From an archaeon (GTDB taxonomy: Archaea; Undinarchaeota; Undinarchaeia; Undinarchaeales; JBDRKL01), in assembly GCA_043814055.1 (NCBI GenBank), contig JBDRKL010000009.1, positions 13,141 through 77,140 of the forward strand: a stretch of 64,000 nucleotides of DNA, given 5' to 3'. Positions 4,263 to 61,429 of this stretch are shown piece by piece. The notes beneath the pieces were generated by a model. It was given only the letters and a program-made list of their open reading frames with translations, did not search any database and was not told the origin of the DNA. Within the stretch, counting starts at the first letter, position 1, and each line of letters begins with the position of its first letter. The translations under genes were made by a program, and so were the position numbers.

Positions 4263-4715
4263 ATGGTAAGGTCAAGGCGATGTAGGTGGATACAGAACGA
4301 ACCAAATGTTACATATTTCAAGCCAGCAGGAGCAAGAATATCACATAGCGAAATTATTGAACTGCAGATGGACGAATACGAGGCGCTGCGGCTTAAGCAT
4401 ATTAAAAAACTGGACCAGGAGAAAGCGGCAGAAAAGATGAACATATCACAGCCGACTTTTCACAGGCTGCTGGAGAGCGCACATGAGAAAATTACCATTG
4501 CGCTAACAAAAGGCATTGCGATAAAAATTAAAGGAGGTGATTATATGACTGAAGAAGAGAGAAAAGGAGTTGCCAAGAGGGACGGCTCTGGAGAAGGAAG
4601 GCGCGCAAACAGGGGAAGAGGTGGATGCGAGCCTCCACAGGACAAGGGAACAGATTTTGGACCAGGCAGGCGCTGCCCACGAGGGCGTGGAAGAAGGCGC
4701 GGACCGCCGGCATAG
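4263..4715 (+). CDS. DUF134 (UPF0251) DNA-binding protein fused to a DUF5320-like Gly/Arg-rich tail
   Basis: The N-terminus RRCRWIQNEPNVTYFKPAG matches the DUF134 signature and is followed by an HTH. The C-terminal RDGSGEGRRANRGRGGC is DUF5320-like. A BRE/TATA aagctttaaatag lies about 27 nt upstream, consistent with a leaderless transcript. Confidence 0.7.
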   Translation: MVRSRRCRWIQNEPNVTYFKPAGARISHSEIIELQMDEYEALRLKHIKKLDQEKAAEKMNISQPTFHRLLESAHEKITIALTKGIAIKIKGGDYMTEEERKGVAKRDGSGEGRRANRGRGGCEPPQDKGTDFGPGRRCPRGRGRRRGPPA

Positions 4716-4750
4716 AAAGGTAAATAAAAGCCGAATTCAAAAGTGAGCAG

Positions 4751-6148
4751 ATGAGAAAAGCAGCCCTTTTGGTTTTAATTCTTGCACTCAGTTTAATTAG
4801 CCCTGCTCTTGCCCAGATTGAAGAGCCACACTGCGCGGTCTACTTCACTGGAATTGGCTGCCCGCATTGTGCAAACGCAGACCCTGTTGTTTTCGGCGAG
4901 CTCCTTGACAGCTGCGACGACTTGGTCGTGATTGAGTACGAGGTGTACCAGGACAGCGGGAACGCGGGGCTCATGTTCTACTATGACCAAGAGTTCAGCA
5001 GTGGCCTCAGCATCCCGCTTTTGATATTCGGCAAGGACAATATGATTGCCGGCGACAACCCGATAATCACTGAGTGCATCGCAGGAACAAATGCAAGGCA
5101 CCAGAGAATTTGCCCTGTAATAAATGGGGAAACTGAGTTTGAGAACCTTGACATCACAAAGCTCAGCGGCAAACCGAAAATCTGGACTAGCAGCGGAATA
5201 CTTCTTAGCTACGGAGACAAGGAAGGAGATTCTGAGCTTTTAAAATCACTCGTGCTTGGCGGGGATGTTGAAACACTCCTGAACGGCGAGGACTACAAAG
5301 TGGTTGAGCCGGTTGAAGTTGAACTCTCTGGCAGTTCTGTGGAGTTTGAGAACGCTGTGCAGATTGAGGACTGGGTGTTCCAGTGGAACGCAGGAGGTGC
5401 TGAAGGGGAAACTGGAGAGATAAATGACACTGGCGGCGGAGCAGGAGAAACTAAAGACCTCTCGCTCGCAACCATTTTCGCACTTGCCGCAGTTGACGCC
5501 ATAAACCCGTGCGCGCTCGCTGTGCTCACGCTTATGCTCATCGCGATAATCACTTACAACCCGAAGCGCAGGGAGAAGATACTCCACGCAGGGCTTGCGT
5601 TCGTGTTTTCAGTTTTTGTAATGTACTTGTTCTATGGCTTGGTGATAATCCGCTTCTTCCAGCTCGTTGACGCGCTCACTTCAGTCCGCTTAATGCTTTA
5701 CACAATCCTTGGCATAGTCGCGATTGCGCTCGGCCTGCTCAACATTAAGGACTATTTCAAATACAAGCCCGGCGGGCTCGCCACAGAAATGCCGATGAAG
5801 CTCAGGCCAATGGTCAAGAAGCTTACAGAGGGCGTGACATCTGCAAAGGGCGCTGCGCTCGTTGGCGTGTTTGTTACACTCTTCCTCCTGCCATGCACAA
5901 TCGGGCCTTATGTAATCGCGGGCGGGATGCTCTCCGCGCTTGAGCTTTTAAAAACCCTGCCGTGGCTCCTGATTTACAATTTCATATTCGTCCTTCCAAT
6001 GCTCGTGATAACACTTATTATCTACAGTGGAATAAAGAAAGTTGATGACGTTTCAGAGTGGAAGGACAATAATATAAAGAAACTGCACTTAATCGCAGGT
6101 ATTGTAATGCTCCTGCTGGGCATTGGAATGATTGGAGGATTCATATAA
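4751..6148 (+). CDS. Thioredoxin-fold (CPHC) ectodomain fused to a DsbD/CcdA-type membrane thiol-disulfide transporter
   Basis: Signal peptide, FTGIGCPHC motif, then TM helices containing DAINPCAL and LLPCTIGPY (the CcdA/DsbD Cys pair). Confidence 0.75.
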   Translation: MRKAALLVLILALSLISPALAQIEEPHCAVYFTGIGCPHCANADPVVFGELLDSCDDLVVIEYEVYQDSGNAGLMFYYDQEFSSGLSIPLLIFGKDNMIAGDNPIITECIAGTNARHQRICPVINGETEFENLDITKLSGKPKIWTSSGILLSYGDKEGDSELLKSLVLGGDVETLLNGEDYKVVEPVEVELSGSSVEFENAVQIEDWVFQWNAGGAEGETGEINDTGGGAGETKDLSLATIFALAAVDAINPCALAVLTLMLIAIITYNPKRREKILHAGLAFVFSVFVMYLFYGLVIIRFFQLVDALTSVRLMLYTILGIVAIALGLLNIKDYFKYKPGGLATEMPMKLRPMVKKLTEGVTSAKGAALVGVFVTLFLLPCTIGPYVIAGGMLSALELLKTLPWLLIYNFIFVLPMLVITLIIYSGIKKVDDVSEWKDNNIKKLHLIAGIVMLLLGIGMIGGFI

Positions 6149-6368: not shown

Positions 6369-8030
6369 CTAATTTCTTCGCCCGCTCTTCTCGCTCTCAA
6401 GGTCGTCGTAAACATCCTTGATTGAGACCTCATCCCAGCCGTACTTGATTAGGTGCTGGCGTATCTTTTCAGGGTGGTGGCCTTGTGCCATATAAGTTTT
6501 AACATAATTCTTTAGCCGGGTGTGCTTCTCCGAGCCGGCCTCTTTTGGAATCTTATGCTCCTTGTTGAACCTGAAAATGTCCATTGATTTGTGGAACTTC
6601 TTCCTCGCGTTCTCGTTAAGCAGAATTACTGAAAAAAATCCTAAAACCCCAACTGCTGAGAAAATTGCGATTAAAAAAACAGGGTTTAGTTCAAGCCCTG
6701 GTGGCATCGTAGTAGTGTTTGTGGTATTGTTGCTTGTGTTCTGCACTACAACCGACTCAGGTGGATTCTCTGAAACAGTAACTGCGTCAATTGTCAGTTC
6801 GCGCGAAGCGGATGTGTAATTATGAGCAGTAATATCAGAACATCGAACCCACCATTCCCAAACACCGTTTGACAACTCAACATCATCAAACTTATTGTCC
6901 GTGTCCTTTGTAATGGACTTATCAGTTTCACGGGTACTGCCATTGGTTATAAGCTCACAATAGTCTACTGAAGCGGCAGAGGTGTATACCTCATACTCAA
7001 AATCGTTCGCGCGTGAAGTGCTGCGGCTGTTGTCTGCGGGAGATGTTAGCTTGATGTCCAGGAATGTGCTAGCCAGGGCAATTGTGTTCACAGTCATCAT
7101 TCTATTATCCGCCCACCCGTGATATCCCTCGCTGTCCGTGCAGTTCACAGTCCAGTTCCAGTAGCCGTCCGCGATTGACACGTACTTGAACGCATTGTAA
7201 GAATTGTTGATTATGTTGTTATCGCTTTGGTTCACTGAACCATTTATGAGTAGCGCGCAGGATATCAGTTTGTTTGGAGAGGCTGGTGTGTAGTTGAAAG
7301 TGATTTGGCGGCTTGGGATTATAGCACCCGATATTGGACTATTGAGTGCAACAATTGGCTTAGATGACGAAGTTATTACGTCAACTAGGGACTGGCTGCT
7401 AACAGCGTAGTTGCCGCGCCTATCACTGCAATTAACATACCAGGTATAGTAACCAGATGTCAGAGTCTTTGAGAACTGGTTGGTGTTGTTATTTGAGATG
7501 GTGCTGTCATTCTCCATAAGCTCGCCGCCGATGTAAAGGAGACAGAACTCTATGCCGGTGTGCACGTCAACAGGCAGGTATGAGAAGTTGACGTTGCCGG
7601 CGCTGTTGCTCGTTATGTTCGCCGAGTTCAGCGAAATCACTGGCTTTGTTATATCCAGGTCAATGATTACGCTCCAATTTGAAGAGTACCCTATGTTATG
7701 TGTCGGCGTGGCGTTGTCCTCGCACTTCACGTACCAAGTCCAAGTACCGTTGGTGATGTTGCGGTAGAACAAGTTGTCAGTATTGTTACCAGGCGATGAC
7801 TCCCCAATTATGATATTACTGACAGAGTTGTTCGCAAAGAGAGTACAGCTTATGAATCCTGTGTCGTCAACCGGCTTGTACTTGAACGTGATATTGTCAT
7901 AATAACTTGTTGCGGCGTTCGCAGGAGCGACCAGCGTTATCACAGGAGCGTTCGCTTCATCCGCGAGCGCGCAGTGAGCAAATGCTAAAAAGAACAAGAA
8001 AGTTGTGAATAGGGCAACGGATTTTCGCAT
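6369..8030 (-). CDS. Surface glycoprotein-like protein: signal peptide, four Ig-like repeats, C-terminal TM, short cytoplasmic domain
   Basis: Four repeats of about 100 aa, each ending G-x-[WY]-x-W-x-V-x-C-x-D (TWTWYVKCED, YYTWYVNCSD, YWNWTVNCTD, VWEWWVRCSD). Many N-x-S/T sequons. The TM segment VFLIAIFSAVGVLGFFSVILL is followed by LKNYVKTYMAQGHHPEKIRQHLIKYGWDEVSIKDVYDDL. Confidence 0.7.
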   Translation of the reverse strand: MRKSVALFTTFLFFLAFAHCALADEANAPVITLVAPANAATSYYDNITFKYKPVDDTGFISCTLFANNSVSNIIIGESSPGNNTDNLFYRNITNGTWTWYVKCEDNATPTHNIGYSSNWSVIIDLDITKPVISLNSANITSNSAGNVNFSYLPVDVHTGIEFCLLYIGGELMENDSTISNNNTNQFSKTLTSGYYTWYVNCSDRRGNYAVSSQSLVDVITSSSKPIVALNSPISGAIIPSRQITFNYTPASPNKLISCALLINGSVNQSDNNIINNSYNAFKYVSIADGYWNWTVNCTDSEGYHGWADNRMMTVNTIALASTFLDIKLTSPADNSRSTSRANDFEYEVYTSAASVDYCELITNGSTRETDKSITKDTDNKFDDVELSNGVWEWWVRCSDITAHNYTSASRELTIDAVTVSENPPESVVVQNTSNNTTNTTTMPPGLELNPVFLIAIFSAVGVLGFFSVILLNENARKKFHKSMDIFRFNKEHKIPKEAGSEKHTRLKNYVKTYMAQGHHPEKIRQHLIKYGWDEVSIKDVYDDLESEKSGRRN

Positions 8031-8174
8031 AGCTAGAGTAAAGTGGGAGAATATAAAAAGGTAACGTGGCAGCGGGAAGAAGCCTTTTATTGTGTTTTAG
8101 TTCACTAAATTCACCTAGAAAAGTTAAGAAAGCTATTTAAGTCAAATTTCCCGGAGATAAGCTGAGGTGGGAAA

Positions 8175-11100
8175 ATGAATGGGAAAATTTGGATGTTTGT
8201 GGTACTATTTCTTCTCAGCGGAATTTCAGGGGGTTTTGCTGAAGGCGTAATTGAAACGGCTGCTGCGCCAGTTGTAACAGTCTGCCCGAGCGGTTGTGAT
8301 TTTACTACGCTACAGGTAGCGGTTGATGCGGTTTCAGAAGGTGGGAAGGTTGAGGTTAGCAGCGGAGTTTACGTGGAGAATATTAGCATTACAAAGGGCA
8401 TAAACATTACTGGAACGTTCTTGCCAAGTATCACAGGAGGTTTCAACATAAATGCGAACAACACCATTATCCAGGGGTTCAGCATTTCACAGGGAACTGC
8501 CTCGGGAACCTTCTGGCCGCCAAATACACTCAGCCCTGGCATTTCCCACGCTGGCATAATCGTTGAGGGCGACAATATCACTATTCACAGCAACAGCATC
8601 TCAAGTATACAAGGGACTGGCGGTGCGTCTGATTGCAACAACAACTTTGTTGGCGGCGGAGTAGGCGGAGAGGCATTCGGAATAAAAGTAAAGAACTCCA
8701 ATAATGTTACAATCACCTCAAATTATATCATATCCATAACAGGCGGCAACGGCGGGATTACTTCTGCCGGCGGCGGCACAGGAGGAATGGCATCTGGCAT
8801 ATACCTTGATTCAGCCAGCGGGGTTGTGCAGGAGAATACACTAGTAGGCCTGACTGGAGGCCCTGGCGGGTCAGGAGGGGCTTGCTACAGCCACGCTGGA
8901 GGCGGCACAGGAGCAATCGCCACGGGCATATACACTATTAATTCACCAAACGTCAACGTCTCCTTAAATGATTTGAAAAATGTGAAGGGCGGTCCTGCGG
9001 GTCTTGGGGGAAATTATAATACCGGAGGAGGCTCAGGCGGGAAAGGCGCTGGTATTCATGTAAAATCTTCCAGCGAGCCCATCGCATTGTCAAATAGTGT
9101 TGAGAACTGTAGTGGCGGGGCGGGGCGCTGTGGAACGATTTATTGCGGAGCGGATGGCATCGGCGCCGGGCTTCTGGTTGAGGGGTCTAGCAATGGAGTG
9201 TTCCATTCAAACAACTTCACGTTAAGTGAGTATGGCGCGAGATTGGAGTCTGCTACTGGGAATATCCTCCACTGGAATAACTTCACTTCAAATACAGTGA
9301 ACGCGTGGGACAATGGAGTTAATCACTGGAACAGCAGTTACGAGGTTGGCGGGAACTACTGGGACGATTACGCGGGCGCTGACGATGGTTCTGGGGAGCC
9401 GCCGTACCACCAAGCAGGAGACGGCATTGGGGACACACTCATACCTTATAACTCATCAGGCAACATAACCAAAGGAGGAGACTACCTGCCATTGCTTGGA
9501 GGAAATCGGCCGCCGGTGATAAATAACATGTACAAAGCTCCGGCAAACCCTGCGCTTGGCAACACTTATTGGACAGTTGCCGAGATAGTGGACCCTGAGG
9601 GGGACGCCATAAATCTGGCTCAGTTTGCTCTGGTCAACCCGAGCGAAGTAACTGTGCTGAACAGCACGCAAAGCACAAACTGGAACACTAACACATGGAA
9701 TTCCACTAGCCACCAGCTCAATGCAGGCGGGACGTGGAAAGTCTATGTGTACGCCAGATCGGACGGGAACTCCAAGATCATCACAAAAACATTCAACTTC
9801 TCGATTGCAGGGGACGCCACCATAAGCCCAATGTCCCGCAATGTAACAGATATGCACCTCGGCAGCTATGAGGTGTTTGAACTGAATATTTCACACAGCT
9901 CCGCAGAGAGCCTGCAGTATGATTTGAGCACAAACCTGAACAGCACCTGGTTTGATGTAAAATTTGACCAGAATCCGGTGACTGTTCCTGGCAGCAACAA
10001 CATTAAAACAGTCGAGGTCAATATAAGCAATAAATACGGAACGCCACTCCAGTCATACACAGGGAATATAACAATAAACAGGACATTGGACGGCTTAATC
10101 CAACCCCTTTCGCTTAATTATACCATAACTGACACTGCTCCAACAATAGACTCAATATCGCCAATGGATATAGATGTGAACGAGGGTGAAACAGCTTACA
10201 TAACACCGGAAGTATCAGATCCTGACGGCGACCCAGTAATGATTACAGTTATCAATAATAATACCAACTTCACAAAAAACGGCAACAAATGGGAATGGCA
10301 AACCAGTATAGGCAATATGGGCAATTATAACATCACTATAATAGCAAATGACTCTGTCTTAACAGACATATTAAAAGTCAATATAATTGTGAACAAAACC
10401 CAAACCGCACCTATCATTACAATCCTCTCGCCAATAAATAACACCAATTACAACACCACAGAAATTGACCTGAACTGGAGCGTGAATCAGGAGCTGGACT
10501 GGGCTGCATTCTCGCTCAACGGAGCAGAAAACAACACTTCAATCTATGATGGCGGGCAGAAGAACGTGACGCTTTACCCTCTGGAGGGACTGAACCAAAT
10601 CATACTTTACGCCAACAACAGCTACGGGAATATGAGCAGCAGTAGCGCAGAGTTCCGAATTGACAGGACCGGTCCGAGCATAACTAAAGTGACACGGCCT
10701 GACACTGCAAGACCGGGAATTAGCTACAACATAACAGCGACCATAGAGGATGCCACTACAAATGTTTCAGGAGTTAATTTAACAATAAGGAATGAGAATG
10801 GCAATAACACAACCGCAGCTATAGTCAATACAGAGAACACTATGCAGTGGCAGTACGAATTCAACGGAAGCAATACAACCAACGGGGATAAATATTATTT
10901 CGGGATAACCGCTGTCGACGCACTTGGCAACAAAAACGTTCACGAGGACAATTTTATTGTAGAAACATATGTTGAACCACCACCAGATCCGAGTGGAGGT
11001 CCTAGCGGCGGAGGACCAAGCAGCACGCCAAAAGAAATCTGCGACGATGGCAAGGACAATGACGGGGACAAAGACATTGACTGCGCGGACTCTAACTGCT

Positions 11101-11672
11101 TGCTAGATGATGCCTGTGCTGTGAAGCTTGAAGAGCCGGTAAGCGCTCCAATCCCGCCGCCACCAGAAACCGTGAAGCCGGCGCAGGAAACGCAGCAGGC
11201 GCCCACCGGGCTTTCAATATATCAAAGAATGAAAAATCCGCTTCTCGCAGTTTTGCTTGGATGCCTGGTTATAGCAGCCCTGGTTGGGTACTCAATGCGA
11301 GAAAGAGAAATTGTGTATATTCCAAAAGAGACACAAGTTCAAGTTAAGCCAAAAGTTGAACCAGCACCAGTCCAGGCACCTGTTGAAAAACCAACCTTGG
11401 TTGAAAAGCGAATTGAGCTCCCAGAACACTCAAGCTCAATTATGCAGGGGCTCTCCCTGCGCGAGCAGGAAATCATGAACTCGTTGATTGAGCACGGCGG
11501 CGAAACTACCCAGGCAAGAATTTATCACCACACCGGCTTGAGCACAAGCGCACTGTCCCGCTGGGTAAACGCGCTTGAGCAAAAAGGACTTATTGAGAGC
11601 CATTACGTGGGAAAGTTAAGAAAGGTGAAGCTGGGTAAAAAGTTTATTGAAAATGGGAAGAGCGGGGTTTGA
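8175..11672 (+). CDS. Giant surface protein (beta-helix plus Ig-like domains) with a C-terminal TM and a cytoplasmic MarR/TrmB-like winged helix
   Basis: Signal peptide; PbH1-like coils with GGxGG turns; Ig-like modules; CDDGKDNDGDKDIDCADSNC motif; TM LLAVLLGCLVIAALVGYSM; then LSLREQEIMNSLIEHGGETTQARIYHHTGLSTSALSRWVNALEQKGLIESHYVGKLRKVKL. Confidence 0.75.
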   Translation: MNGKIWMFVVLFLLSGISGGFAEGVIETAAAPVVTVCPSGCDFTTLQVAVDAVSEGGKVEVSSGVYVENISITKGINITGTFLPSITGGFNINANNTIIQGFSISQGTASGTFWPPNTLSPGISHAGIIVEGDNITIHSNSISSIQGTGGASDCNNNFVGGGVGGEAFGIKVKNSNNVTITSNYIISITGGNGGITSAGGGTGGMASGIYLDSASGVVQENTLVGLTGGPGGSGGACYSHAGGGTGAIATGIYTINSPNVNVSLNDLKNVKGGPAGLGGNYNTGGGSGGKGAGIHVKSSSEPIALSNSVENCSGGAGRCGTIYCGADGIGAGLLVEGSSNGVFHSNNFTLSEYGARLESATGNILHWNNFTSNTVNAWDNGVNHWNSSYEVGGNYWDDYAGADDGSGEPPYHQAGDGIGDTLIPYNSSGNITKGGDYLPLLGGNRPPVINNMYKAPANPALGNTYWTVAEIVDPEGDAINLAQFALVNPSEVTVLNSTQSTNWNTNTWNSTSHQLNAGGTWKVYVYARSDGNSKIITKTFNFSIAGDATISPMSRNVTDMHLGSYEVFELNISHSSAESLQYDLSTNLNSTWFDVKFDQNPVTVPGSNNIKTVEVNISNKYGTPLQSYTGNITINRTLDGLIQPLSLNYTITDTAPTIDSISPMDIDVNEGETAYITPEVSDPDGDPVMITVINNNTNFTKNGNKWEWQTSIGNMGNYNITIIANDSVLTDILKVNIIVNKTQTAPIITILSPINNTNYNTTEIDLNWSVNQELDWAAFSLNGAENNTSIYDGGQKNVTLYPLEGLNQIILYANNSYGNMSSSSAEFRIDRTGPSITKVTRPDTARPGISYNITATIEDATTNVSGVNLTIRNENGNNTTAAIVNTENTMQWQYEFNGSNTTNGDKYYFGITAVDALGNKNVHEDNFIVETYVEPPPDPSGGPSGGGPSSTPKEICDDGKDNDGDKDIDCADSNCLLDDACAVKLEEPVSAPIPPPPETVKPAQETQQAPTGLSIYQRMKNPLLAVLLGCLVIAALVGYSMREREIVYIPKETQVQVKPKVEPAPVQAPVEKPTLVEKRIELPEHSSSIMQGLSLREQEIMNSLIEHGGETTQARIYHHTGLSTSALSRWVNALEQKGLIESHYVGKLRKVKLGKKFIENGKSGV

Positions 11673-11787
11673 GAAAACTGGGAAGGAGGAACTTCTAGTT
11701 ATTGATTTCCACCACATCCTTCCCACCCCTTTTCCCGCCGAGTTTTAATATAAGTTCCCAGTCGCAGTTGTTCCTGAGGTGATATGA

Positions 11788-12171
11788 ATGGATGAAATCG
11801 TTCACTACATGCAGAAACTCGGATTGAACCTTTACCAGAGCAGGGCAATGGTTGTTCTGCTCGCAACAGGCGAGGCAGAAGCGAAGCAGATATGCGAGTG
11901 CTCAGGAGTTCCGTACACCAAGATATACCAAATATTGAAACAGCTGGAAGACAAAGGACTGATTGAGTATAAACTCAACAGCCCGAGGACTTACAAGCCG
12001 CGCGGGAGAAAAGCCGTGCTGAACAAGCTCGTGAGAAAAGAGGCAAGGCGCGTGACATATTTGGAGAATGAAAAAGAGCGCCAACTTCAAAAGATAGGAA
12101 GGCTTAAGCTTGGGGCAACAAAAGGAATTGAGCAAGTACACCCAGTGTTTAATTCAGAACCAGGATTCTAG
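11788..12171 (+). CDS. TrmB-like wHTH transcriptional regulator
   Basis: MQKLGLNLYQSRAMVVLLATGEAEAKQICECSGVPYTKIYQILKQLEDKGLIEY matches the TrmB N-terminal domain pattern. Confidence 0.65.
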   Translation: MDEIVHYMQKLGLNLYQSRAMVVLLATGEAEAKQICECSGVPYTKIYQILKQLEDKGLIEYKLNSPRTYKPRGRKAVLNKLVRKEARRVTYLENEKERQLQKIGRLKLGATKGIEQVHPVFNSEPGF

Positions 12172-17872: not shown

Positions 17873-18089
17873 CAGCCATCAGGTCGCGCTCTTGCTTGGT
17901 GACTTTCTTCCAGCACTTCTTGCAGTAGCGCTCGTTCTTCCACTGGCGCGAGCAGGACTTGTGCATTGGTTTTTCGCAGTTTTTGCACACGAGGTCCGGG
18001 TTTGCTCCTGCGCAGGTCACGCAATTTGAGCTTTCGCTCGGCTGTTCAGATTCCTCTGCTTCTTTTTTCTTGAATAGGTTTAGAGCCAT
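17859..18089 (-). CDS. Small zinc-ribbon protein
   Basis: Cys pairs CVTC...CKNC...CKKC. It overlaps the rnp4 start by 14 nt. Confidence 0.45.
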   Translation of the reverse strand: MALNLFKKKEAEESEQPSESSNCVTCAGANPDLVCKNCEKPMHKSCSRQWKNERYCKKCWKKVTKQERDLMAVANS

Positions 18090-18183
18090 AAGATAGAATA
18101 GATTAGCAGGATATTAAAGCTTAGCATTGAGCGCCCGATAGAAAACATATAAATCACCTAATAGAAAAGAACCAGAGGTTAAA

Positions 18184-18468
18184 ATGAAAGTAAAAGAACT
18201 AATGGACAGAATCCCTGTGGACGAGATAACGCTGAAGATAACTGACAAGCAGGAGCCGCGCAAAATACCAGGCAAAACGCTCACGGTCTGCGAGTGCACA
18301 GGCGAGGACGACACAGGCAAGGTTATAGTGACGCTTTGGAACGACGAGATTCGCCTGATTGACATAGATGACACTGTAAAAATCACCAAGGGCTGGGCGT
18401 CCAGGTATGATGACGAGTTAACGGTTTCAGCCGGCAAGTTTGGGAAGATTGAAGTTGTGGATGAGTAG
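18184..18468 (+). CDS. Single OB-fold nucleic-acid-binding protein
   Basis: ITLKITDKQEPRKI...CECTGEDDTGKVIVTLWNDEIRLIDIDDTVKITKGWASRYDDELTVSAGKFGKIEV is a typical short OB/RPA-like pattern. Confidence 0.55.
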   Translation: MKVKELMDRIPVDEITLKITDKQEPRKIPGKTLTVCECTGEDDTGKVIVTLWNDEIRLIDIDDTVKITKGWASRYDDELTVSAGKFGKIEVVDE

Positions 18469-18557
18469 AGAAAAGATATTAAAAAAATAAACCCACAATA
18501 GTTAAGAAAAGTATAAAAGAACAGCAATAAATAAACAGATAAGGGGTAGGCAAAAGA

Positions 18558-19379
18558 ATGATGGAATCATACTACGAAAAACCAGGATTTAAGCTATATC
18601 ACTCGGATTCGTTTGAACTTTTGAAGGATTTGCCAGAGAATTCTGTAGATATGATTTTTGCCGATCCACCATATTTCCTTTCAAACGGCAGTTTCACATG
18701 TCAAAATGGAAAAATGGTTAGCGTAAAGAAAGGAAATTGGGACATGGGCAATGGCACAAAACAAGATTTTGATTTTCATTTGGATTGGCTAAACGCTTGC
18801 AGGAGAGTCCTAAAGCCAAATGGAACAATTTGGATTAGCGGAACATACCACTCAATTTACCAGTGCGGCTTTGCACTACAAATGAATAATTTCCACATTT
18901 TGAATGATATTGCCTGGTTTAAGCCTAACGCCTCACCTAATTTGAGCTGCAGATTCTTTACCGCTAGCCACGAAACCCTAATTTGGGCTCGCAAGAATAA
19001 GGAAGCAAAGCACACTTTTAATTATGATATTACTAAAACCGGAAACTGGCCTGAAGACCAGTTAAAAAAAGAGGGGTTACAGATGCGCTCTGTTTGGTCA
19101 ATACCAACGCCCAAGCCACAGGAGAAAACCTTCGGCAAACACCCAACGCAAAAGTCATTGGATCTGCTGAGAAGAATTGTATTAGCAAGCACTAACAAGG
19201 GCGATTTGATTCTTGATCCTTTTACAGGAAGCTCCACAACAGGTCTGGCTGCCCATATGTATGGAAGGGATTTTATTGGAATTGACAATGAACAAAAATA
19301 TCTAGATCTATCCATTAAACGCTTTGAAGAACTGGAAAATAATCTAAAAAAAGAGAAAACCACCGGCGGTTTGATATGA
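18558..19379 (+). CDS. N6-adenine DNA methyltransferase, DpnA (M2.DpnII)-like, beta class
   Basis: SVDMIFADPPYFLSNG...LKPNGTIWISG...PNLSCRFFTASHETLIWARK...GKHPTQKSLDLLRRIVLASTNKGDLILDPFTGSSTTG is near-collinear with DpnA as I recall it. Confidence 0.85.
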   Translation: MMESYYEKPGFKLYHSDSFELLKDLPENSVDMIFADPPYFLSNGSFTCQNGKMVSVKKGNWDMGNGTKQDFDFHLDWLNACRRVLKPNGTIWISGTYHSIYQCGFALQMNNFHILNDIAWFKPNASPNLSCRFFTASHETLIWARKNKEAKHTFNYDITKTGNWPEDQLKKEGLQMRSVWSIPTPKPQEKTFGKHPTQKSLDLLRRIVLASTNKGDLILDPFTGSSTTGLAAHMYGRDFIGIDNEQKYLDLSIKRFEELENNLKKEKTTGGLI

Positions 19380-20293
19380 AAAAAATTGAATTTTATGAAA
19401 AGACGCTAAAATGCAACACAGCGGATGAAGTTTTTAACCACATTATTTCAACTTTTAAACCAAGCATACTTACATGGTCTTATTTTGTGAATTGGGATAA
19501 GGTTTTTCAGAACACGAAAGATATTGAGATAGGGCTTAACAAACTAAATTATCTAATCGGCAAAGAGGATTTTGATAAAGAATTCAGATATCTAATAAAA
19601 AAAGAGGCAGAGCTTCTAAAAATCATTCCAGCACTGGTTGTGAGGGATGGTCAGAACACTTTAAAATTCAAAATTTTGGTTGATTACAGTCAAAAAAAGA
19701 TGGTGTATGAAGAATATGACTTTAACAAAGATACTTTAACAGACGAGAATATTGAAAAGTGCCTGACTTTTGTTAAGGAAACTGGCTTGAAAAAATTGAT
19801 TACCTCCGGAAGTATCAAAAATTTAGTGGATTATATGATTGGGGTTGAGGCAGGATTGGACAGCAATGGACGAAAAAACCGTTCCGGCAGTGCAATGGAA
19901 AACATTGTTGAAATGTTCATAAAAGACATTTGCAACAGGAAGAACTTCAGATATTTAAGGCAGGCAGATGCAAAAAAGATCAAAGAAGAGTTTGGATACG
20001 ATGTCCCGGTTGACAAGTCATCAAGAAGGTATGATTTTGTAATTGACACTGGAAAAGAGCTTGTCCTTTTTGAAACAAACTTTTACGGCGGCGGTGGCTC
20101 AAAACTAAAATCAACAGCAGGCGAGTACAGAAATCTGTTTGACATACTTGAAGACAAATACAAATTTATTTGGATTACAGACGGACTTGGCTGGAAAACA
20201 ACTCAAAAACCGTTGCGAGAAACATTTGAGCATAATGATTATCTGTTTAATTTGGATATGCTGGAAAAAAAGGTATTAGATGTAGTGTTGTAG
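19376..20293 (+). CDS. Type II restriction endonuclease, DpnII/MboI (GATC) family
   Basis: LVDYMIGVEAGLDSNGRKNRSGSAMENIVE...RYDFVI...LFETNFYGGGGSKLKSTAGEY...FIWITDGLGWKTTQKPLRETF matches the R.DpnII pattern. 4-bp overlap with the methyltransferase gene. Confidence 0.85.
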   Translation: MKKIEFYEKTLKCNTADEVFNHIISTFKPSILTWSYFVNWDKVFQNTKDIEIGLNKLNYLIGKEDFDKEFRYLIKKEAELLKIIPALVVRDGQNTLKFKILVDYSQKKMVYEEYDFNKDTLTDENIEKCLTFVKETGLKKLITSGSIKNLVDYMIGVEAGLDSNGRKNRSGSAMENIVEMFIKDICNRKNFRYLRQADAKKIKEEFGYDVPVDKSSRRYDFVIDTGKELVLFETNFYGGGGSKLKSTAGEYRNLFDILEDKYKFIWITDGLGWKTTQKPLRETFEHNDYLFNLDMLEKKVLDVVL

Positions 20294-20304: not shown

Positions 20305-20376
20305 TGGACCCGGCCCGGATTGAACGGGCGACCTCTGCCATGTGAGGGCAGTGTCATACCACTAGACCACGGGTCC
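20305..20376 (-). tRNA. tRNA-Val (CAC), no intron, CCA not encoded
   Basis: GGACCCGTGGTCTAGTGGTATGACACTGCCCTCACATGGCAGAGGTCGCCCGTTCAATCCGGGCCGGGTCCA folds as a cloverleaf with anticodon loop CTCACAT. Confidence 0.85.
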
Positions 20377-36894: not shown

Positions 36895-36983
36895 GTCGGG
36901 GTGGCACAACCTGGTACTGCGTAGGGTTGCTAACCCTATTGGACGTAAGTCCTTCGCGAGTTCAAATCTCGTCCCCGACGCCA
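36895..36983 (+). tRNA. tRNA-Ser (GCU), long variable arm, CCA encoded
   Basis: GTCGGGG...TAGGGTTGCTAACCCTA...TGGACGTAAGTCC...GAGTTCAAATCTC...CCCCGACGCCA. Confidence 0.85.
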
Positions 36984-37556: not shown

Positions 37557-37704
37557 TGGGCCCGTGGTCTAGTGGCTATGACGTCTCCCTTACAACCCTT
37601 TTGCTTCGCAAAAGCGTTGACGGAAAAGAAACCGTCTTCGCGGCGATTGGAGCACGAGGGAAAGAACGGAGAAGTTCACAGGTTCGACTCCTGTTGGGCC
37701 CACC
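37557..37704 (+). tRNA. tRNA-Val (UAC) with a 72-nt intron at the canonical 37/38 site (37594..37665), CCA encoded
   Basis: GGGCCCGTGGTCTAGTGGCTATGACGTCTCCCTTACA[intron]CGGAGAAGTTCACAGGTTCGACTCCTGTTGGGCCCACCA. Confidence 0.8.
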
Positions 37705-38348: not shown

Positions 38349-38627
38349 CCCGGTACAGGCTAGGCCGGGAGAGTAGCAGTCTCCCTTTCTCAAATCTGCT
38401 TTAGGAGGGCTGAATGCCGGTGTGAGTTGCAGTATTGGGGGAGTCGTCTTGGGCTCTGGCGTCGAAGCCTCGTCCTGCGGGACTGACTGCCCTGCTAACC
38501 GGGTCAGATGGGGAACCAAGCAGCCCTACACAGGGCGCGTTGGTGCTCGCGGGTTCGCGGGGTGGAGCCTCTGCTCAAGGTCAGCGGCTTTCTTAGTATT
38601 GCAGCGAGCTCCGGATGCCTGTGCCAC
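38349..38627 (+). ncRNA. Signal recognition particle RNA (archaeal 7S)
   Basis: The 5' GGTACAGGCTAGGCCGGG pairs with the 3' CCGGATGCCTGTGCC. The internal CCGGGTCAGATGGGGAACCAAGCAGCC resembles the conserved helix-8 SRP54-binding motif. An oligo-T run (38632..38636) follows. The ends are approximate, about +/-5 nt. Confidence 0.75.
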
Positions 38628-41603: not shown

Positions 41604-41704
41604 AGCCCCGTAGTGTAGCGGCCAAGCACTCCGGCCTTTGACCTGTGTTTGATAAAAACTCAGGAAGACAGCCGGTAACGGCAGTTCGAATCTGCCCGGG
41701 GCTA
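41604..41704 (+). tRNA. tRNA-Gln (UUG) with a 28-nt intron at 37/38 (41642..41669)
   Basis: AGCCCCGTAGTGTAGCGGCCAAGCACTCCGGCCTTTGA[intron]AGCCGGTAACGGCAGTTCGAATCTGCCCGGGGCTA. Confidence 0.8.
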
Positions 41705-41705
41705 C

Positions 41706-43064
41706 TCAAAATTTAGTGGTTAGTATTTTTTGCTTTTTTGCATAGAGAGTGATAAGAAAGTTTAATTTTTGTTTCCATTTATGTGATTTAAAATCAGCAG
41801 GGTATATTTCTATAAGTTTGCTTTGAAACCCTAGTTTTTGATACAGAGGTAACTTAACCTCAATAGTTTTGATGTCATAAAATTCCTTTCCAGCAAGCCC
41901 CCAAATTTCAACCCAGTGCTGTCCTATTTTAAAATCCGTACGAGATTTTGGGTCTGTTTTAGATTTGGATATTCTCACCCCAACTTGATGGGAAATGCCA
42001 TTATAAAATAGCCAATTGTCAACAACACGCTCATAAGTAGAATTAACCATATGGCCATCTTTACATACTAATTTCTCTGTGTAACCGAATAGAGAGGCTC
42101 GTATAGGGATATTATATTCTTTTAGCCACCTTATTACAGAAGTAGAAGCAACTCCACAGGATAATGCAATCTCATAAGAAGATAGTTTATCATTTAAATA
42201 CCATCCAATAAGCTCAGTTCTAGTAGGCTTATATGAATTAAATAATCGGGTCTCACTAGAGGTTCTTGATTCAACCCTATATCTTTTTAATAAGTTTGAA
42301 ATGGACACATCACTAATGTTGTACATATTTGCTATCTGGCATATAGAGAATCCCTTTTTAACATATAGGTCTTGCAATTCTTGTTTAATGGGGAACTTTG
42401 CGTCTTTTTTGAGATTTCGGGAACCCCCTTTTCGGATAGGTATACCATATTTTTTTAACCATCTAGCAACACTGCCCTTGGTAACTCTGCAGATTTTTGC
42501 AATTTTAATAGTTGATTGATGTTCATCTAGATACCACTGTTCTAATTCTTTTTTTGAAGGCACATACGATTTAAAAAGACGAGTTTCAATACCTTTTCTT
42601 GCTGTTATCCCATATTTTTTCAGATAATCGGCAATCGTAGATGGATCGATATTACATAGTTTTCCTATCTTCAAAACAGATAAACCTTGAACTAAATACC
42701 AATCTTGAAGTTCTTCTTGAGTAGGCATATGAGCATTTGATTTAAGATTTGCTTCAGAAGCAGAACGGATAGAGACTTTGTATTTTTTTAATAGGCGTCC
42801 AATAACTGAACGGGATACACCATATTTTTTTGCTATTATTAGAGGATGTACTCTTTGTGTCAGATACATTGCCTCTAATTCACTTTTGGACGGAAGAACA
42901 ACCCCTTCGTTTAAACGTGCCTCAGAGGGCGTCCTTACTAAATTTCTTTTTTTTAGAAATTGCCAAACAAAACCCTGAGAAACATTTAAGATTTTTGCAA
43001 TCTCGTGTGTTGTTTTTCTTTTAGTTATATATAAGTCGATAATTTGTTTCTCATCAATTTCCAT
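41706..43064 (-). CDS. Six tandem HTH modules plus a C-terminal PD-(D/E)xK-like nuclease domain (homing-endonuclease-like)
   Basis: Six repeats of about 57 aa of the form P-x-x-x-EL-x-x-WY...S...IA..[YC].V[ST]...[IV]..[WL]LKKY.I..R. The C-terminus STYERVVDNWLFYNGISH...RTDFKIGQHWVEIWG resembles the Vsr/DUF559-type D...E-x-K core. Strongly AT-rich by eye. Its stop lies 2 nt from the tRNA-Gln 3' end. Confidence 0.6.
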   Translation of the reverse strand: MEIDEKQIIDLYITKRKTTHEIAKILNVSQGFVWQFLKKRNLVRTPSEARLNEGVVLPSKSELEAMYLTQRVHPLIIAKKYGVSRSVIGRLLKKYKVSIRSASEANLKSNAHMPTQEELQDWYLVQGLSVLKIGKLCNIDPSTIADYLKKYGITARKGIETRLFKSYVPSKKELEQWYLDEHQSTIKIAKICRVTKGSVARWLKKYGIPIRKGGSRNLKKDAKFPIKQELQDLYVKKGFSICQIANMYNISDVSISNLLKRYRVESRTSSETRLFNSYKPTRTELIGWYLNDKLSSYEIALSCGVASTSVIRWLKEYNIPIRASLFGYTEKLVCKDGHMVNSTYERVVDNWLFYNGISHQVGVRISKSKTDPKSRTDFKIGQHWVEIWGLAGKEFYDIKTIEVKLPLYQKLGFQSKLIEIYPADFKSHKWKQKLNFLITLYAKKQKILTTKF

Positions 43065-43095
43065 ACTAAATACTCCACTTAGTTTTCAAACCTTA

Positions 43096-43707
43096 TTAAT
43101 CCAATTCAACCCCAAACCCTTTCAAATCCTCTTTGAGCTTTTCTGAATTTTCAAACAAAACCGCATTCATACCCAAAGATTTCGCAATATCAACAAACGC
43201 CTGAATATCGTCAATAAACAAAACCTCTTCTGGTTTAAGATTCAACTTGTCCAGCGCGAATTTGAAAAACTCAGGGTTGTCCTTGGTCATCTTCGCGTCA
43301 ACTGATGCAATGATTCCCTCTAGAAAATCAAACCAGCCCTGCTGAACCACGATGTCTTTGTGCTTCTGTATCGCGTTTGTGAGCGCGACAATTTTGTAAT
43401 TCTTTTTGAGCTCAAGCGCGATTTCTTTAACCGACTCGTTCACCTTGACCATTTCAGCATAGTTCCAAACGAAGATTGCCTTGAGCAAGTCCAAATTCAC
43501 GTCCTTGCCCATGCGCTCGTTGAGCTTTTTCAAGAACTCTGTGCCGCTCATCTCGCCCCTGCACGCAGGGAGCGATTCCATGTTTATTATTTTCCAGAAC
43601 TCAGGCTTGCCCTCTCCCTTTACCCCGTAGAACTCCGCGGCTTTTTCAAGAATCGGGCGCATGTCAAGCAATACACCGCCGATATCAAACATAATTGTAG
43701 TAATCAT
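43096..43707 (-). CDS. HAD-superfamily hydrolase
   Basis: MFDIGGVL (motif I DxG), LTNA, and FIDD near the C-terminus. Confidence 0.75.
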   Translation of the reverse strand: MITTIMFDIGGVLLDMRPILEKAAEFYGVKGEGKPEFWKIINMESLPACRGEMSGTEFLKKLNERMGKDVNLDLLKAIFVWNYAEMVKVNESVKEIALELKKNYKIVALTNAIQKHKDIVVQQGWFDFLEGIIASVDAKMTKDNPEFFKFALDKLNLKPEEVLFIDDIQAFVDIAKSLGMNAVLFENSEKLKEDLKGFGVELD

Positions 43708-52563: not shown

Positions 52564-54549
52564 TCACTTTTGCGGCGGCAGGGTAACGTTATACCCGTCA
52601 ACCTCGTTTGCCAGTATCGTAAATGTAGCGGTGTTTGTGCCAAAAGGGGACAGCGTGGTCGTGATGATGTGCAGGTATAGTGGAACGACTCTAGTGTAGC
52701 CGCCGGGCGCGAACTCCTCGTATTCGTAGTCAATGTTCCACGGCCAGGAGTCAGACGTCCTGCCGCTTGAGCCAGTTGTTGCGTTCCAGGACGGGCTGCC
52801 GACAAAGTCAATAGAGGATACTGAGGCGCCGGACAGGTTTGTCCCGTTCGTGTGAATTGCCCTGACAACGCTGTACCAGCCGCGCCTGATTGTGGACGTG
52901 TCTTTGAGGATAGTCTTGGACGTGTTATAAGTGGTGTTCACGAGCCGGACTGTGCTGTTGAGCTCCGCCGATGCATGGAACGCCACATTTGAGGAGTCAA
53001 GCTTAGTGTCGTAGATGAACAGGACTGAGTTCTTGCTGGAATAAAACGCTGACGTGCGGGAATTCGTGATTTTGTTGCTCCTGATGTAAAGCCCGTTCGA
53101 GTCAGAGGTATCGTACATGTCAACTGCATAGCTGCAGTTCTTCAGCGTGTTGCCCTCAAAGAAGTTGTTCGCCCCTGCGTTGTTGTTTATGCGCAGGCAG
53201 GACTGGCCGCCAAGGAAGGTGTTGTTGGATATGGTGTTGTTTTCGTTAAAGTATGACAAGGGATTGGTGGTCTCAAACCAGAAGCCGTAGTTGCTGAACT
53301 TAACATAATTGTCGTGGATGGAATTTTGGTGCGCCATGTCATAGACATTAATCCCGTTGTTAACGTCCAGCAAATTTTTGTAGACCTCGTTGTTGGTTGA
53401 GTTCAGGACGGCTATGCCAACATTGGTGAGGTTGTTGAGCATTGTGTTGTAGCGGATTGTTATGTTGAATGACTCGGACTGAAGGAGTATGCCAACCAGG
53501 CTGTTCTTGTAAAAAACATTATTCTCAACAGTGCTGCTGTCCGTGCCTCTGAGGCTTATGCCATAGCGCGAACTTGCAAACGTATTGTTCGCGAAGCTGC
53601 TGCCGGTGCACCTTGTAGCGATTAGTGAATAACCGGCGTTCGTGAAGGTTGAGTTGAACAAGTTGCCAATGACACTGAGATTGCTGCAGTCAGTTGCGAT
53701 TATGGATACAGAGTAATAGCTCATTGTCGGGGTAAAATTGTTGAAGCCCACAACACAGTCGTTGCAATTGTCCAGCCCAAAGCCGCTGAACCTGTGGTCA
53801 AGGACGCTATTGCCGCTGATTTGCAGGCCGGACGACACGTTGGAATATATCTCGCCGAAGTCAACGTACAAGAGAGTTTTGTTGGTGTTGTTCAGGAAAA
53901 CATTGTCGGATATGCTGGTATAGTTGGAGTTGTTGTTGTAAATACCGTACAAGAGATTCAGGAGAATCTTGTTGCCGGTAATTTGGGCAGAGTTTGAGCC
54001 CGCTGATGCGAACACACCATAGTTGTTCCCAGTGATTGTGTTTTCCTTGACCACGGCAGAGGAGGACGCCTCAAGAAACACGCCGCGCTTGGAACTATAG
54101 AGCGTGTTGTTCTCCACAACAACGCCGTCCGCCGAACTGGAGTATATGTTATACCTGTAGCCGTGCAAAATGCAGTTCTTAACCGTGGACCCGCTGAAAT
54201 TAGTGTAGATGCCGTCCACGGACGTGCTGCCAGTAATGTTTGCGCCGCTACAGTCAAGGGTTATGTTTGTTGCGTTGAACACGAGGACTCCTTTTGCAGG
54301 CTTTGCAACAAAAACGTAGTTCCCGGCACACAGGGTTGTGTCGTTGTTAAGGTAGTATGGAGCTGTGACGCTGGACAGGTTGACGCACGCAACGCCGGCA
54401 TTTGCCGCCTTCTTTGCCAAGCCGGGCGGCATGGCATTTTCCTTGTCGCTGCGGGCGACGCACGGGGCTGATATGAGGAGAAATCCTAGAAAAATTAGGA
54501 GCAGTATGGGTCCAATTGCAACTGATTTTGTAGTATTGATTTGCGCCAT
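52564..54549 (-). CDS. Secreted right-handed beta-helix (PbH1/NosD-like) repeat protein
   Basis: Signal peptide. Many coils of the type NNTLYSSKRGVFLEASSSAVVKENTITGNNYGVFA. Dense N-x-S/T sequons. Confidence 0.7.
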   Translation of the reverse strand: MAQINTTKSVAIGPILLLIFLGFLLISAPCVARSDKENAMPPGLAKKAANAGVACVNLSSVTAPYYLNNDTTLCAGNYVFVAKPAKGVLVFNATNITLDCSGANITGSTSVDGIYTNFSGSTVKNCILHGYRYNIYSSSADGVVVENNTLYSSKRGVFLEASSSAVVKENTITGNNYGVFASAGSNSAQITGNKILLNLLYGIYNNNSNYTSISDNVFLNNTNKTLLYVDFGEIYSNVSSGLQISGNSVLDHRFSGFGLDNCNDCVVGFNNFTPTMSYYSVSIIATDCSNLSVIGNLFNSTFTNAGYSLIATRCTGSSFANNTFASSRYGISLRGTDSSTVENNVFYKNSLVGILLQSESFNITIRYNTMLNNLTNVGIAVLNSTNNEVYKNLLDVNNGINVYDMAHQNSIHDNYVKFSNYGFWFETTNPLSYFNENNTISNNTFLGGQSCLRINNNAGANNFFEGNTLKNCSYAVDMYDTSDSNGLYIRSNKITNSRTSAFYSSKNSVLFIYDTKLDSSNVAFHASAELNSTVRLVNTTYNTSKTILKDTSTIRRGWYSVVRAIHTNGTNLSGASVSSIDFVGSPSWNATTGSSGRTSDSWPWNIDYEYEEFAPGGYTRVVPLYLHIITTTLSPFGTNTATFTILANEVDGYNVTLPPQK

Positions 54550-61416: not shown

Positions 61417-61429
61417 TTCATATCACCTC

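Follow-up and report, generated by a model that had tools for sequence, protein, structure and literature searches.

A type-I single-pass membrane protein from an Undinarchaeota genome joins a giant adhesin-like ectodomain to a DUF7343 winged helix and is a candidate transcription regulator

Transmembrane transcription regulators (TTRs), defined by one or more predicted transmembrane (TM) regions together with a predicted DNA-binding domain, are widespread in archaea: a survey lists 1,384 archaeal examples, finds that 56% of all such regulators are single-pass and proposes that they act at the membrane (Demey et al. 2023, PMC10269533). In the bacterial regulators ToxR, TcpP and CadC, a single polypeptide has a sensor outside the cytoplasm, one TM helix and, inside, a winged helix-turn-helix (wHTH) without a dimerization domain; all three act at the membrane, and TcpP is also proteolysed (PMC10269533, PMC11323476). 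ArnR and ArnR1 of the archaeon Sulfolobus acidocaldarius are likewise membrane-bound and contain a helix-turn-helix (HTH); as far as the cited accounts describe them, the HTH is N-terminal and of a different family, the TM helices are C-terminal and there is no large ectodomain (PMC10269533; PMC13286277 citing Bischof et al. 2019). Here, we analyze a stretch of 64,000 nucleotides (nt) from an Undinarchaeota metagenome-assembled genome (MAG; GCA_043814055.1, contig JBDRKL010000009.1), hereafter the window, in which one gene (8175..11672, forward strand) encodes an 1165-amino-acid (aa) protein with a large adhesin-like ectodomain, one TM helix and a C-terminal wHTH of the DUF7343 family. Its predicted TM region and its predicted DNA-binding domain, the latter found by hidden Markov models (HMMs), AlphaFold2 (AF2) and Foldseek, place it within the computational definition of a TTR. 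DUF7343 was already catalogued, as an uncharacterized family, and the TTR class was known; what the 1165-aa protein adds is a candidate TTR of type I whose ectodomain is giant and adhesin-like.

The described systems differ from this protein in layout or in scale. In ToxR, TcpP and CadC the wHTH is N-terminal and OmpR-type, there is no signal peptide, the periplasmic domains are small and the topology is opposite to that of the 1165-aa protein, which has no Trans_reg_C match, a C-terminal wHTH and type I topology and is not of the ToxR/CadC type. Other DUF7343 (PF24034) proteins share the above-threshold wHTH family and the order of signal peptide, ectodomain, one TM, basic linker and C-terminal wHTH, but a typical member has only ~340 aa and the median ectodomain 185 aa, compared with the 1000-aa beta-helix and immunoglobulin (Ig)-like ectodomain described here. 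Receptors of the Notch/SREBP type resemble the protein by analogy of layout only, in that one TM links an ectodomain of many modules and large size to an intracellular domain related to transcription; they have no homology to it. The features of the gene, in window coordinates and with AF2 confidence given as predicted local distance difference test (pLDDT) values, are:

8133..8170, + strand: putative promoter and ribosome-binding region of the large gene, an interpretation read from the sequence
8175..11672, + strand: the large gene, a complete open reading frame (ORF) of 1165 aa plus stop, with ATG start (ORF list)
8175..8243, + strand: signal peptide, cleavable or anchoring, residues 1-23 (hydropathy; K4, hydrophobic core 5-23, GFA-EG cleavage-like site)
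8262..9509, + strand: right-handed parallel beta-helix of NosD/CASH type, residues 30-445 (Pfam, AF2, Foldseek)
9510..10094, + strand: beta-rich, sequon-rich segment, residues 446-640 (no Pfam match; AF2 pLDDT <50)
10095..10982, + strand: three probable Ig/FN3-like beta-sandwich modules, residues ~641-750, 746-836 and 834-936 (sub-threshold Pfam, AF2)
10983..11129, + strand: Gly/Pro-rich stalk with a four-Cys acidic motif, CDDGKDNDGDKDIDCADSNC..C (NCBIfam)
11130..11234, + strand: conserved juxtamembrane segment, residues 986-1020 (the BLASTP alignment to the product of locus L001, that of the closest relative, starts at residue 986)
11235..11303, + strand: single TM helix, residues 1021-1043 (hydropathy score 2.46; AF2 helix, pLDDT 91-95)
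11304..11423, + strand: disordered cytoplasmic linker, residues 1044-1083, rich in Pro, Lys, Val and Glu (AF2)
11424..11651, + strand: C-terminal wHTH, residues 1084-1159 (Pfam, AF2, Foldseek)
11679..11725, + strand: perfect 9-nt inverted repeat, TGGGAAGGA / TCCTTCCCA, with a 29-nt spacer, just 3' of the stop codon (sequence inspection)

The ORF was recovered with exactly the coordinates and length given by the first-pass annotation, a reading of the DNA made without database searches. All the elements that it had listed are present in its order, and the signal peptide, beta-helix coils with GGxGG turns, Cys/Asp-rich motif, single TM segment and Pro/Lys linker stand as it described them; its account of the Ig-like modules and of the wHTH family needed revision (below). 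NCBI holds the identical product as 'MAG: hypothetical protein ABIG20_03005 [archaeon]', on an 81.7-kb contig. Inspection of the upstream sequence shows a TATA-like CTATTTAA at 8133-8140 and a Shine-Dalgarno (SD)-like GAGGTG at 8165-8170. Downstream, a C/T-rich run comes after the inverted repeat, and the two together possibly mark the transcript end. An internal start that would yield a soluble wHTH is unlikely because no SD-like sequence precedes M1089.

The C-terminal domain carries the prediction of DNA binding. Pfam DUF7343 matches residues 1097-1152 (DNA 11463-11630) at 37.6 bits against a gathering threshold of 27.6, and other Pfam HTH families score lower: HTH_24 lies just above its cutoff (22.1 versus 21.9), and MarR (22.1 versus 24.6), MarR_2 (23.9 versus 27), TrmB (13.6 versus 25.6) and IclR all fall below theirs. 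The AF2 model of residues 1010-1165, built on an alignment of 16 sequences, consists of the TM helix, a disordered linker of ~40 residues and a winged helix of order H-H-b-H-H-b-b-H at pLDDT 96-97, and the full-length model also yields the winged helix; over residues 1084-1159 the pLDDT is 90-97. Searched against the PDB with Foldseek, the wHTH matches DNA-binding wHTH proteins only, at a probability of 1.0, including the DNA-bound MarR-family structures MftR (8ylg) and SlyA (3q5f), PcaV, the ArsR-family proteins HlyU, SqrR and CzrA, the pNOB8 centromere-binding protein, Sso10a, TrmBL2 and CodY. A profile of 40 family members, run against PDB sequences, again finds DNA-binding wHTH proteins only (CodY at 2e-5, SlyA at 6.5e-5, an Lrs14-like protein and LrpA). 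The first-pass annotation had held that its hypothesis would fail if this region did not model as a DNA-binding wHTH; the confidently modeled fold and its matches to DNA-bound MarR, SlyA and MftR point to just such a domain.

The domain is basic, with an isoelectric point of 9.7 (family median 9.9; 40 of the 40 aligned members are basic), and in the same alignment an Arg of the recognition helix (helix 3) is conserved in 93% of members and wing Lys in 95-100%, alongside a conserved wing Arg. It thus shares the fold and the basic recognition helix and wing of MarR/SlyA, ArsR, CodY and Csa3/CasR wHTHs, its best structural and profile matches, but has neither the N- and C-terminal dimerization helices that MarR carries nor a sensor domain like those of CodY and Csa3. 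No dimerization helices flank the wHTH in the AF2 model, which has only the wHTH core and one short C-terminal helix. With the MarR and MarR_2 thresholds missed and the helices of the MarR dimer interface absent, MarR membership is rejected, as is TrmB membership on its score. Because it falls below the thresholds for MarR and TrmB, the domain is best described as DUF7343, so that of the earlier 'MarR/TrmB-like wHTH' the wHTH holds, by Pfam, AF2 and Foldseek, and the family does not. A defense-system reading was also rejected, given that the PADLOC matches cover just the generic C-terminal wHTH of Csa3 and CasR. There is no second DUF7343-like domain within the window.

A Kyte-Doolittle scan finds only two hydrophobic segments in the protein, residues 5-23, which support the signal peptide and are overlapped by a helix (residues 4-16) in the full-length AF2 model, and residues 1021-1043, the sole such stretch beyond the signal peptide. 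The linker that comes after the TM helix is without secondary structure in the models (pLDDT 63-74 in the C-terminal model and <50 in the full-length model). In 123 relatives whose TM helix lies 81-201 residues from the C-terminal end, lysine plus arginine (K+R) in the 15-residue flanks averages 1.75 in the flank facing the ectodomain and 5.14 in that facing the wHTH; 112 of these relatives have the higher count on the wHTH side, and only 1 has the reverse. The 1165-aa protein has 42 N-x-S/T sequons, all in the ectodomain and none after the TM helix, compared with 20 ± 3.9 expected from composition (0 of 2,000 shuffles reach 42), and both the excess and the distribution fit a glycosylated extracellular domain. 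Given the signal peptide and single TM, the positive-inside statistics of the family and the distribution of sequons, the wHTH is predicted to be cytoplasmic, in an N-out, C-in, type I topology. A C-terminus outside the cell was a further outcome that the first-pass annotation had counted against itself, and segments, family flank charges and sequons agree on a cytoplasmic one.

To place the protein among its relatives, residues 1013-1165 were used as query in an exhaustive HMMER search of 1.84 billion representatives (E ≤ 1e-3). This gave 225 proteins, in which the match lies nearly always at the extreme C-terminus; when the C-terminal module or a 40-sequence profile was run in word-indexed searches, few proteins came back, mostly fragmentary. 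Among 148 representatives, 90 have a signal peptide and one TM (type I), 33 have one TM only and 20 have no hydrophobic segment, the last being mostly fragments of <155 aa. Named members come from Woesearchaeota, Nanoarchaeota, Undinarchaeota, unclassified archaeal MAGs and Methanothrix, and are annotated as hypothetical, as 'uncharacterized membrane protein' or as 'helix-turn-helix domain-containing protein'. The DUF7343 threshold is also passed by the relatives P0059, P0062, P0088, P0195, P0057 and P0073. Some short members have sub-threshold CarboxypepD_reg-like matches.

Against this background the 1165-aa protein is typical in context, with a signal peptide, an ectodomain, a single TM and, within the usual 80-200 aa after it, a wHTH at the extreme C-terminus. 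The first-pass annotation had called the joining of an adhesin-like ectodomain to a wHTH unusual; the fusion as such is not, because it is the plan of 90 of the 148 representatives. Only the size of the ectodomain is unusual, and here the earlier view holds in part: ectodomains of at least 800 aa occur in 5 of the 90, namely in the 1165-aa protein, P0059 (1153 aa), P0066 (1700 aa), P0067 (1557 aa) and P0070 (1044 aa; with Cadherin_4, F5/8-type-C, Big_9 and PKD matches), but they recur in the closest subfamily, whose marker is TQARIYH.TG.P.T.LSRW and whose complete members are mostly long. Giant ectodomains are a recurrent minority of the family. Two relatives, P0059 (ABIG20_00410) and P0088 (ABIG20_01365; partial, at least 829 aa), are paralogues in the same MAG, given that their NCBI locus-tag prefix is identical to that of ABIG20_03005, which brings the copies of the module in this genome to at least three. 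These paralogues share only the TM-linker-wHTH module with the 1165-aa protein, at 35-41% identity, and their ectodomains are unrelated; across proteins with unrelated ectodomains the module is 30-58% identical. This conserved output module on unrelated ectodomains suggests a receptor family with different inputs and a common output.

The ectodomain begins with the beta-helix, which the first-pass annotation had recognized from its coils. Scanned alone, the ectodomain passes Pfam NosD (PF05048) at 30.8 bits against a cutoff of 23.6, AF2 models residues 30-445 at pLDDT 90-98, and Foldseek matches the region to beta-helix enzymes and tail fibres. Five consecutive coil repeats of ~42 aa each occupy residues 125-330 (8550-9170) and carry Gly-rich loops (GGxGG…GGGxGG); these loops are without the Asp of RTX repeats, and AF2 confidence dips there. 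The cap motif, GGNYW..DY..D..G.GD...PL in the 1165-aa protein, reads GGNYW.DY.G.D...G.GD.PY....PL in the alignment with homologues. The N-terminal 420 aa are homologous to archaeal NosD/CASH beta-helix surface proteins: 53 homologues share the beta-helix region only, all of them archaeal surface-type proteins with PF13229 or PF05048, but none of the 53 found carries DUF7343. A full-length homology search gave no full-length orthologue except the identical NCBI entry. An orthologue of NosD proper, of nitrous oxide reductase maturation, was ruled out, with TIGR04247 at 57.4 bits (E 8.8e-16) against a cutoff of 300.

The ~490 aa after the beta-helix are beta-rich and partly Ig/FN3-like. Residues 641-750 match Big_9 at 21.0 bits (E 6e-4), under the cutoff of 23.6, and match by BLAST the Cadherin_4/Big_9 region of P0070; residues 746-936 have weak, sub-threshold Pfam matches to Big_7, Big_13, GldM_4th and FlgD_ig; and residues 834-930 form a beta-sandwich (AF2, pLDDT 57-75) with FN3 fold matches in Foldseek. 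Over residues 446-833 the AF2 confidence is mostly pLDDT <50, because the alignment is shallow there. The several Ig-like modules of the first-pass annotation are weakly supported, with no Ig match above threshold in Pfam. A PDB sequence search with the ectodomain gave no significant match.

Between these modules and the membrane lie the stalk, acidic and presumably stabilized by disulfides, and the juxtamembrane segment. The four-Cys acidic motif occupies residues 952-981 (DNA 11028-11117) and matches NF033662, 'acidic double-disulfide repeat', below cutoff (E 1.9e-4); a Cys/Asp stalk motif, TPKEICDDGKDND..DC..C, recurs in the same-genome paralogue P0088. Closer to the TM helix, the motif A-P-T-G-L (residues 1009-1013, DNA 11199-11213) belongs to a pattern, [PAST]-T-G-[LFY], found 0-16 aa upstream of the TM in 9 of the 12 closest relatives and in two loci, L003 and L004, from a genome scan; besides the 1165-aa protein, the pattern is carried by L003, L004, P0055, P0057, P0059, P0060, P0062, P0063, P0066 and P0088. 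The pattern could be a processing site. It resembles sortase LPXTG-type signals, yet a cytoplasmic region of 124 residues comes after the TM. A sortase or archaeosortase sorting signal (LPXTG, PGF-CTERM) was ruled out, given that x-T-G-L is followed by the TM and then by these 124 residues, and the sole NCBIfam sorting-signal match, PEP-CTERM NF038129 (16.4 bits versus 65), falls at residues 859-938, away from the TM.

We tentatively propose, with confidence a little short of even, that the 1165-aa protein is a one-component, type-I single-pass TTR of the DUF7343 family in which clustering pairs monomeric wHTHs that then bind DNA while tethered to the membrane. From sequence and models we infer a sensor role, in which DNA binding, signal and mechanism are all predicted. 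The beta-helix/Ig-like ectodomain would bind an extracellular polymer or surface, such as a glycan, the S-layer or a partner cell, and binding would cluster or dimerize the ectodomains and TM helices and so bring two wHTHs together. The paired wHTHs would bind DNA and alter transcription from the membrane, as in ToxR, TcpP and CadC, with the ~40-residue linker reaching the nucleoid. The wHTH has no dimerization domain of its own. Set on differing ectodomains, one conserved output module would make up a receptor family with different inputs and a common kind of output.

Several observations weigh against this proposal. Within the library searched, no paper dealt with DUF7343 or with the signal peptide-ectodomain-TM-wHTH architecture, and no experiment was found on DNA binding, a target gene, a ligand or dimerization of any DUF7343 protein. 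Nothing relevant came up for COG2512, to which the first-pass annotation had likened membrane-associated archaeal wHTH proteins, or for HTH surface proteins of DPANN archaea, and a 2014 paper on archaeal dark matter leaves the family out. Between paralogues and even among very divergent members, the H2/H3 motif TQA.IYH.TG.P..SLSR shows strong conservation, which would be unexpected if each receptor had its own DNA target and fits equally well a common, possibly non-DNA, partner. A conserved neighboring target gene or operator was not found at the large gene or at the related loci; the only operator-like repeats near the large gene are two short 9-nt inverted repeats, neither of them informative. 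Structural surface proteins have large adhesin-like ectodomains just as typically as sensors do. Furthermore, the protein's own positive-inside signal is weak (3 versus 2), so that its predicted topology depends on the number of hydrophobic segments, on the sequons and on the statistics of the family.

The protein could have a more trivial origin, as the first-pass annotation recognized when it named a frameshift or an assembly fusion as grounds for abandoning its hypothesis: a secreted protein and a small membrane-anchored wHTH gene may have been joined by a sequencing or assembly error. At L001, the locus of the closest relative (P0055, 58% identity), separate ORFs indeed encode the ectodomain and the TM-wHTH part, in different frames and with a 4-nt GTGA start/stop overlap (L001 543-621), an arrangement compatible with two coupled genes. 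But L001 is a 2.4-kb contig (NODE_287567, ENA) at 2.1x coverage and the change of frame sits at a poly-C/poly-G tract, so that this sole hint of a two-gene version, if not real, is read as a sequencing error or a pseudogene. The lone TM-wHTH product would have no signal peptide, yet it keeps the conserved extracellular stalk. A genome scan with a 9-sequence alignment gave 3 genome loci with uninterrupted fused ORFs of 706 aa (L002, Undinarchaeota), 964 aa (L003) and 794 aa (L004, UBA543); with P0067, intact on a 49-kb contig at 1557 aa, and the 1165-aa protein itself, this makes five independent loci, to which further full-length representatives of 1044-1700 aa are added. The architecture is thus continuous in independent genomes and in two paralogues of the same MAG, and we regard an artefactual fusion as extremely improbable. 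A real fusion could still serve as a structural anchor, in which TM, linker and wHTH tie diverse surface proteins to the nucleoid in a sequence-independent way, or else to RNA or a conserved protein of the cytoplasm, and so position or stabilize envelope proteins, with no control of transcription. One conserved module on many unrelated ectodomains is reminiscent of sortase or PGF-CTERM anchors, the putative recognition helix is unusually conserved across paralogues, beta-helix/Ig-like adhesin-type ectodomains are typical of structural surface proteins and the divergent neighbor of the large gene likewise encodes a surface protein that has a tail domain in the cytoplasm. One TM helix is enough to anchor the protein, however, the closest sequence and fold relatives of the wHTH are all bona fide transcription regulators or chromatin proteins, and a few positions of the recognition helix do vary (RW/RY/RH/RV/KT); on balance we consider a purely structural role unlikely.

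We give about the same low weight to release by regulated intramembrane proteolysis, as with Notch, SREBP or RsiV, whereby binding to the ectodomain or a pull on it would set off a juxtamembrane cut, possibly at x-T-G-[LFY], followed by a cut within the TM that frees linker and wHTH as a soluble regulator; S2P/M50, rhomboid or presenilin-like enzymes are the candidate TM-cutting proteases. The conserved motif 0-16 aa before the TM in the closest subfamily would suit such a first cut, although x-T-G-[LFY] is absent from the larger Woesearchaeota-type subfamily. The TM of the closest subfamily also has a conserved mid-helix Gly, with N-P at the outer edge in the 1165-aa protein and P0055, and archaea have several S2P homologues without identified substrates (PMC9263693). 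Database entries of 86-150 aa with the wHTH only could be read in the same sense, though most look like fragments from short contigs. No protease gene adjoins the large gene or the related loci (the other ORFs of the window were read by eye and were unscreened for S2P or rhomboid proteases), and the released wHTH would be a monomer without a dimerization element. More speculative still, and in our estimation quite unlikely, is a Notch-like family of contact receptors in the Undinarchaeota lineage and in DPANN-type archaea at large, whose giant adhesin ectodomains would differ in binding specificity but all be joined through one TM to a common DNA-binding module. On this view, physical contact, be it with a host cell, a surface or a glycan, would act directly on transcription, either by clustering or by a force- or ligand-triggered cut at x-T-G-[LFY] and intramembrane proteolysis.

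The large gene lies between two genes to which the first-pass annotation had drawn attention:

11788..12171, + strand: stand-alone TrmB-type wHTH protein, 127 aa (PF01978, 65.1 bits versus 25.6)
6369..8030, - strand: divergent surface protein, 553 aa, in which a signal peptide and four repeats are joined by one TM to a cytoplasmic tail of 80 aa (Pfam)

Both descriptions, a stand-alone TrmB-like wHTH as the next gene and a divergent surface protein with a cytoplasmic tail, agree with our results. TrmB proper has, besides its N-terminal wHTH, a sugar-binding domain at the C-terminus; the 127-aa product is called TrmB-type wHTH and no more, because of its length and because it scores far below the TrmB, TrmBL1 and TrmBL2 equivalog cutoffs. 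Its gene has TATA-like (11742-11752) and SD-like (11777-11783) elements of its own, and no TrmB-like gene, protease, target gene or other common partner is shared beside the homologues in L001-L005. A functional pairing of the two genes is unsupported, given the separate promoter and SD-like elements, the intervening inverted repeat and the lack of conservation in related loci. The sole Pfam match of the 553-aa protein is a weak one to Big_13, and its 80-aa tail, scanned alone, matches no Pfam family; the tail (6369-6620, - strand, …LKNYVKTYMAQGHHPEKIRQHLIKYGWDEVSIKDVYDDL…) resembles a small helical domain.

Elsewhere in the window, positions 4263-6148 (+) encode a DUF134 HTH protein (85 bits) with an Arg/Gly-rich tail and then a 465-aa protein that is a fusion of a CPHC thioredoxin-like exported domain with an SfLAP/DsbD-like membrane domain; this may be an extracytoplasmic disulfide system, of relevance to the Cys-rich surface proteins close by. 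Another surface protein of the NosD/Beta_helix kind (661 aa; PF13229, 120 bits) is encoded at 52564..54549 (-). Two ORFs of 273 and 305 aa at 18558-20293 (+), adjoining a tRNA (20305-20376) in a region with a guanine-cytosine (GC) content of 0.38 (18001-20000), read by eye like a DNA methyltransferase and a restriction endonuclease and could form a mobile restriction-modification island. At 41706-43064 (-), a 452-aa protein has about six tandem HTH-like repeats of ~47 aa (…EIAKILNVSQGFVWQFLKKRNL…, …KIGKLCNIDPSTIADYLKKYGI…) and a distinct C-terminal domain, and adjoins a low-GC stretch (42001-44000, GC 0.395). The ORFs at 56699-63990 (-) resemble by eye a type IV pilus- or archaellum-like cluster; among their products are two polytopic membrane proteins, an ATPase-like protein of 575 aa and large proteins rich in sequons, of which one is possibly vWA-like. 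Three tRNA matches (36895-36980, 37558-37702 and 41604-41704) span 86-145 nt compared with 71 nt in the model and are probably intron-containing archaeal tRNA genes, and an archaeal signal recognition particle (SRP) RNA is found at 38353-38624.

Many DPANN-like lineages are thought to depend on contact with other cells, and it is in such lineages that the type-I DUF7343 design is concentrated. Archaeal TTRs are common, yet almost none has been studied, and the few that have been characterized, ArnR and ArnR1, are without an ectodomain. The proteins described here represent a distinct and recurrent design, in which type I topology and a variable, often giant adhesin-like ectodomain are combined with a conserved C-terminal DUF7343 wHTH, and the DUF7343 family hereby gains domain boundaries and a concrete, testable functional hypothesis. 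If the wHTH binds DNA, these proteins would be direct candidates for contact- or glycan-dependent gene control in archaea, and also candidate substrates of orphan archaeal intramembrane proteases. Should the Notch-like interpretation prove true, they would provide S2P or rhomboid proteases of archaea with their first natural substrates.

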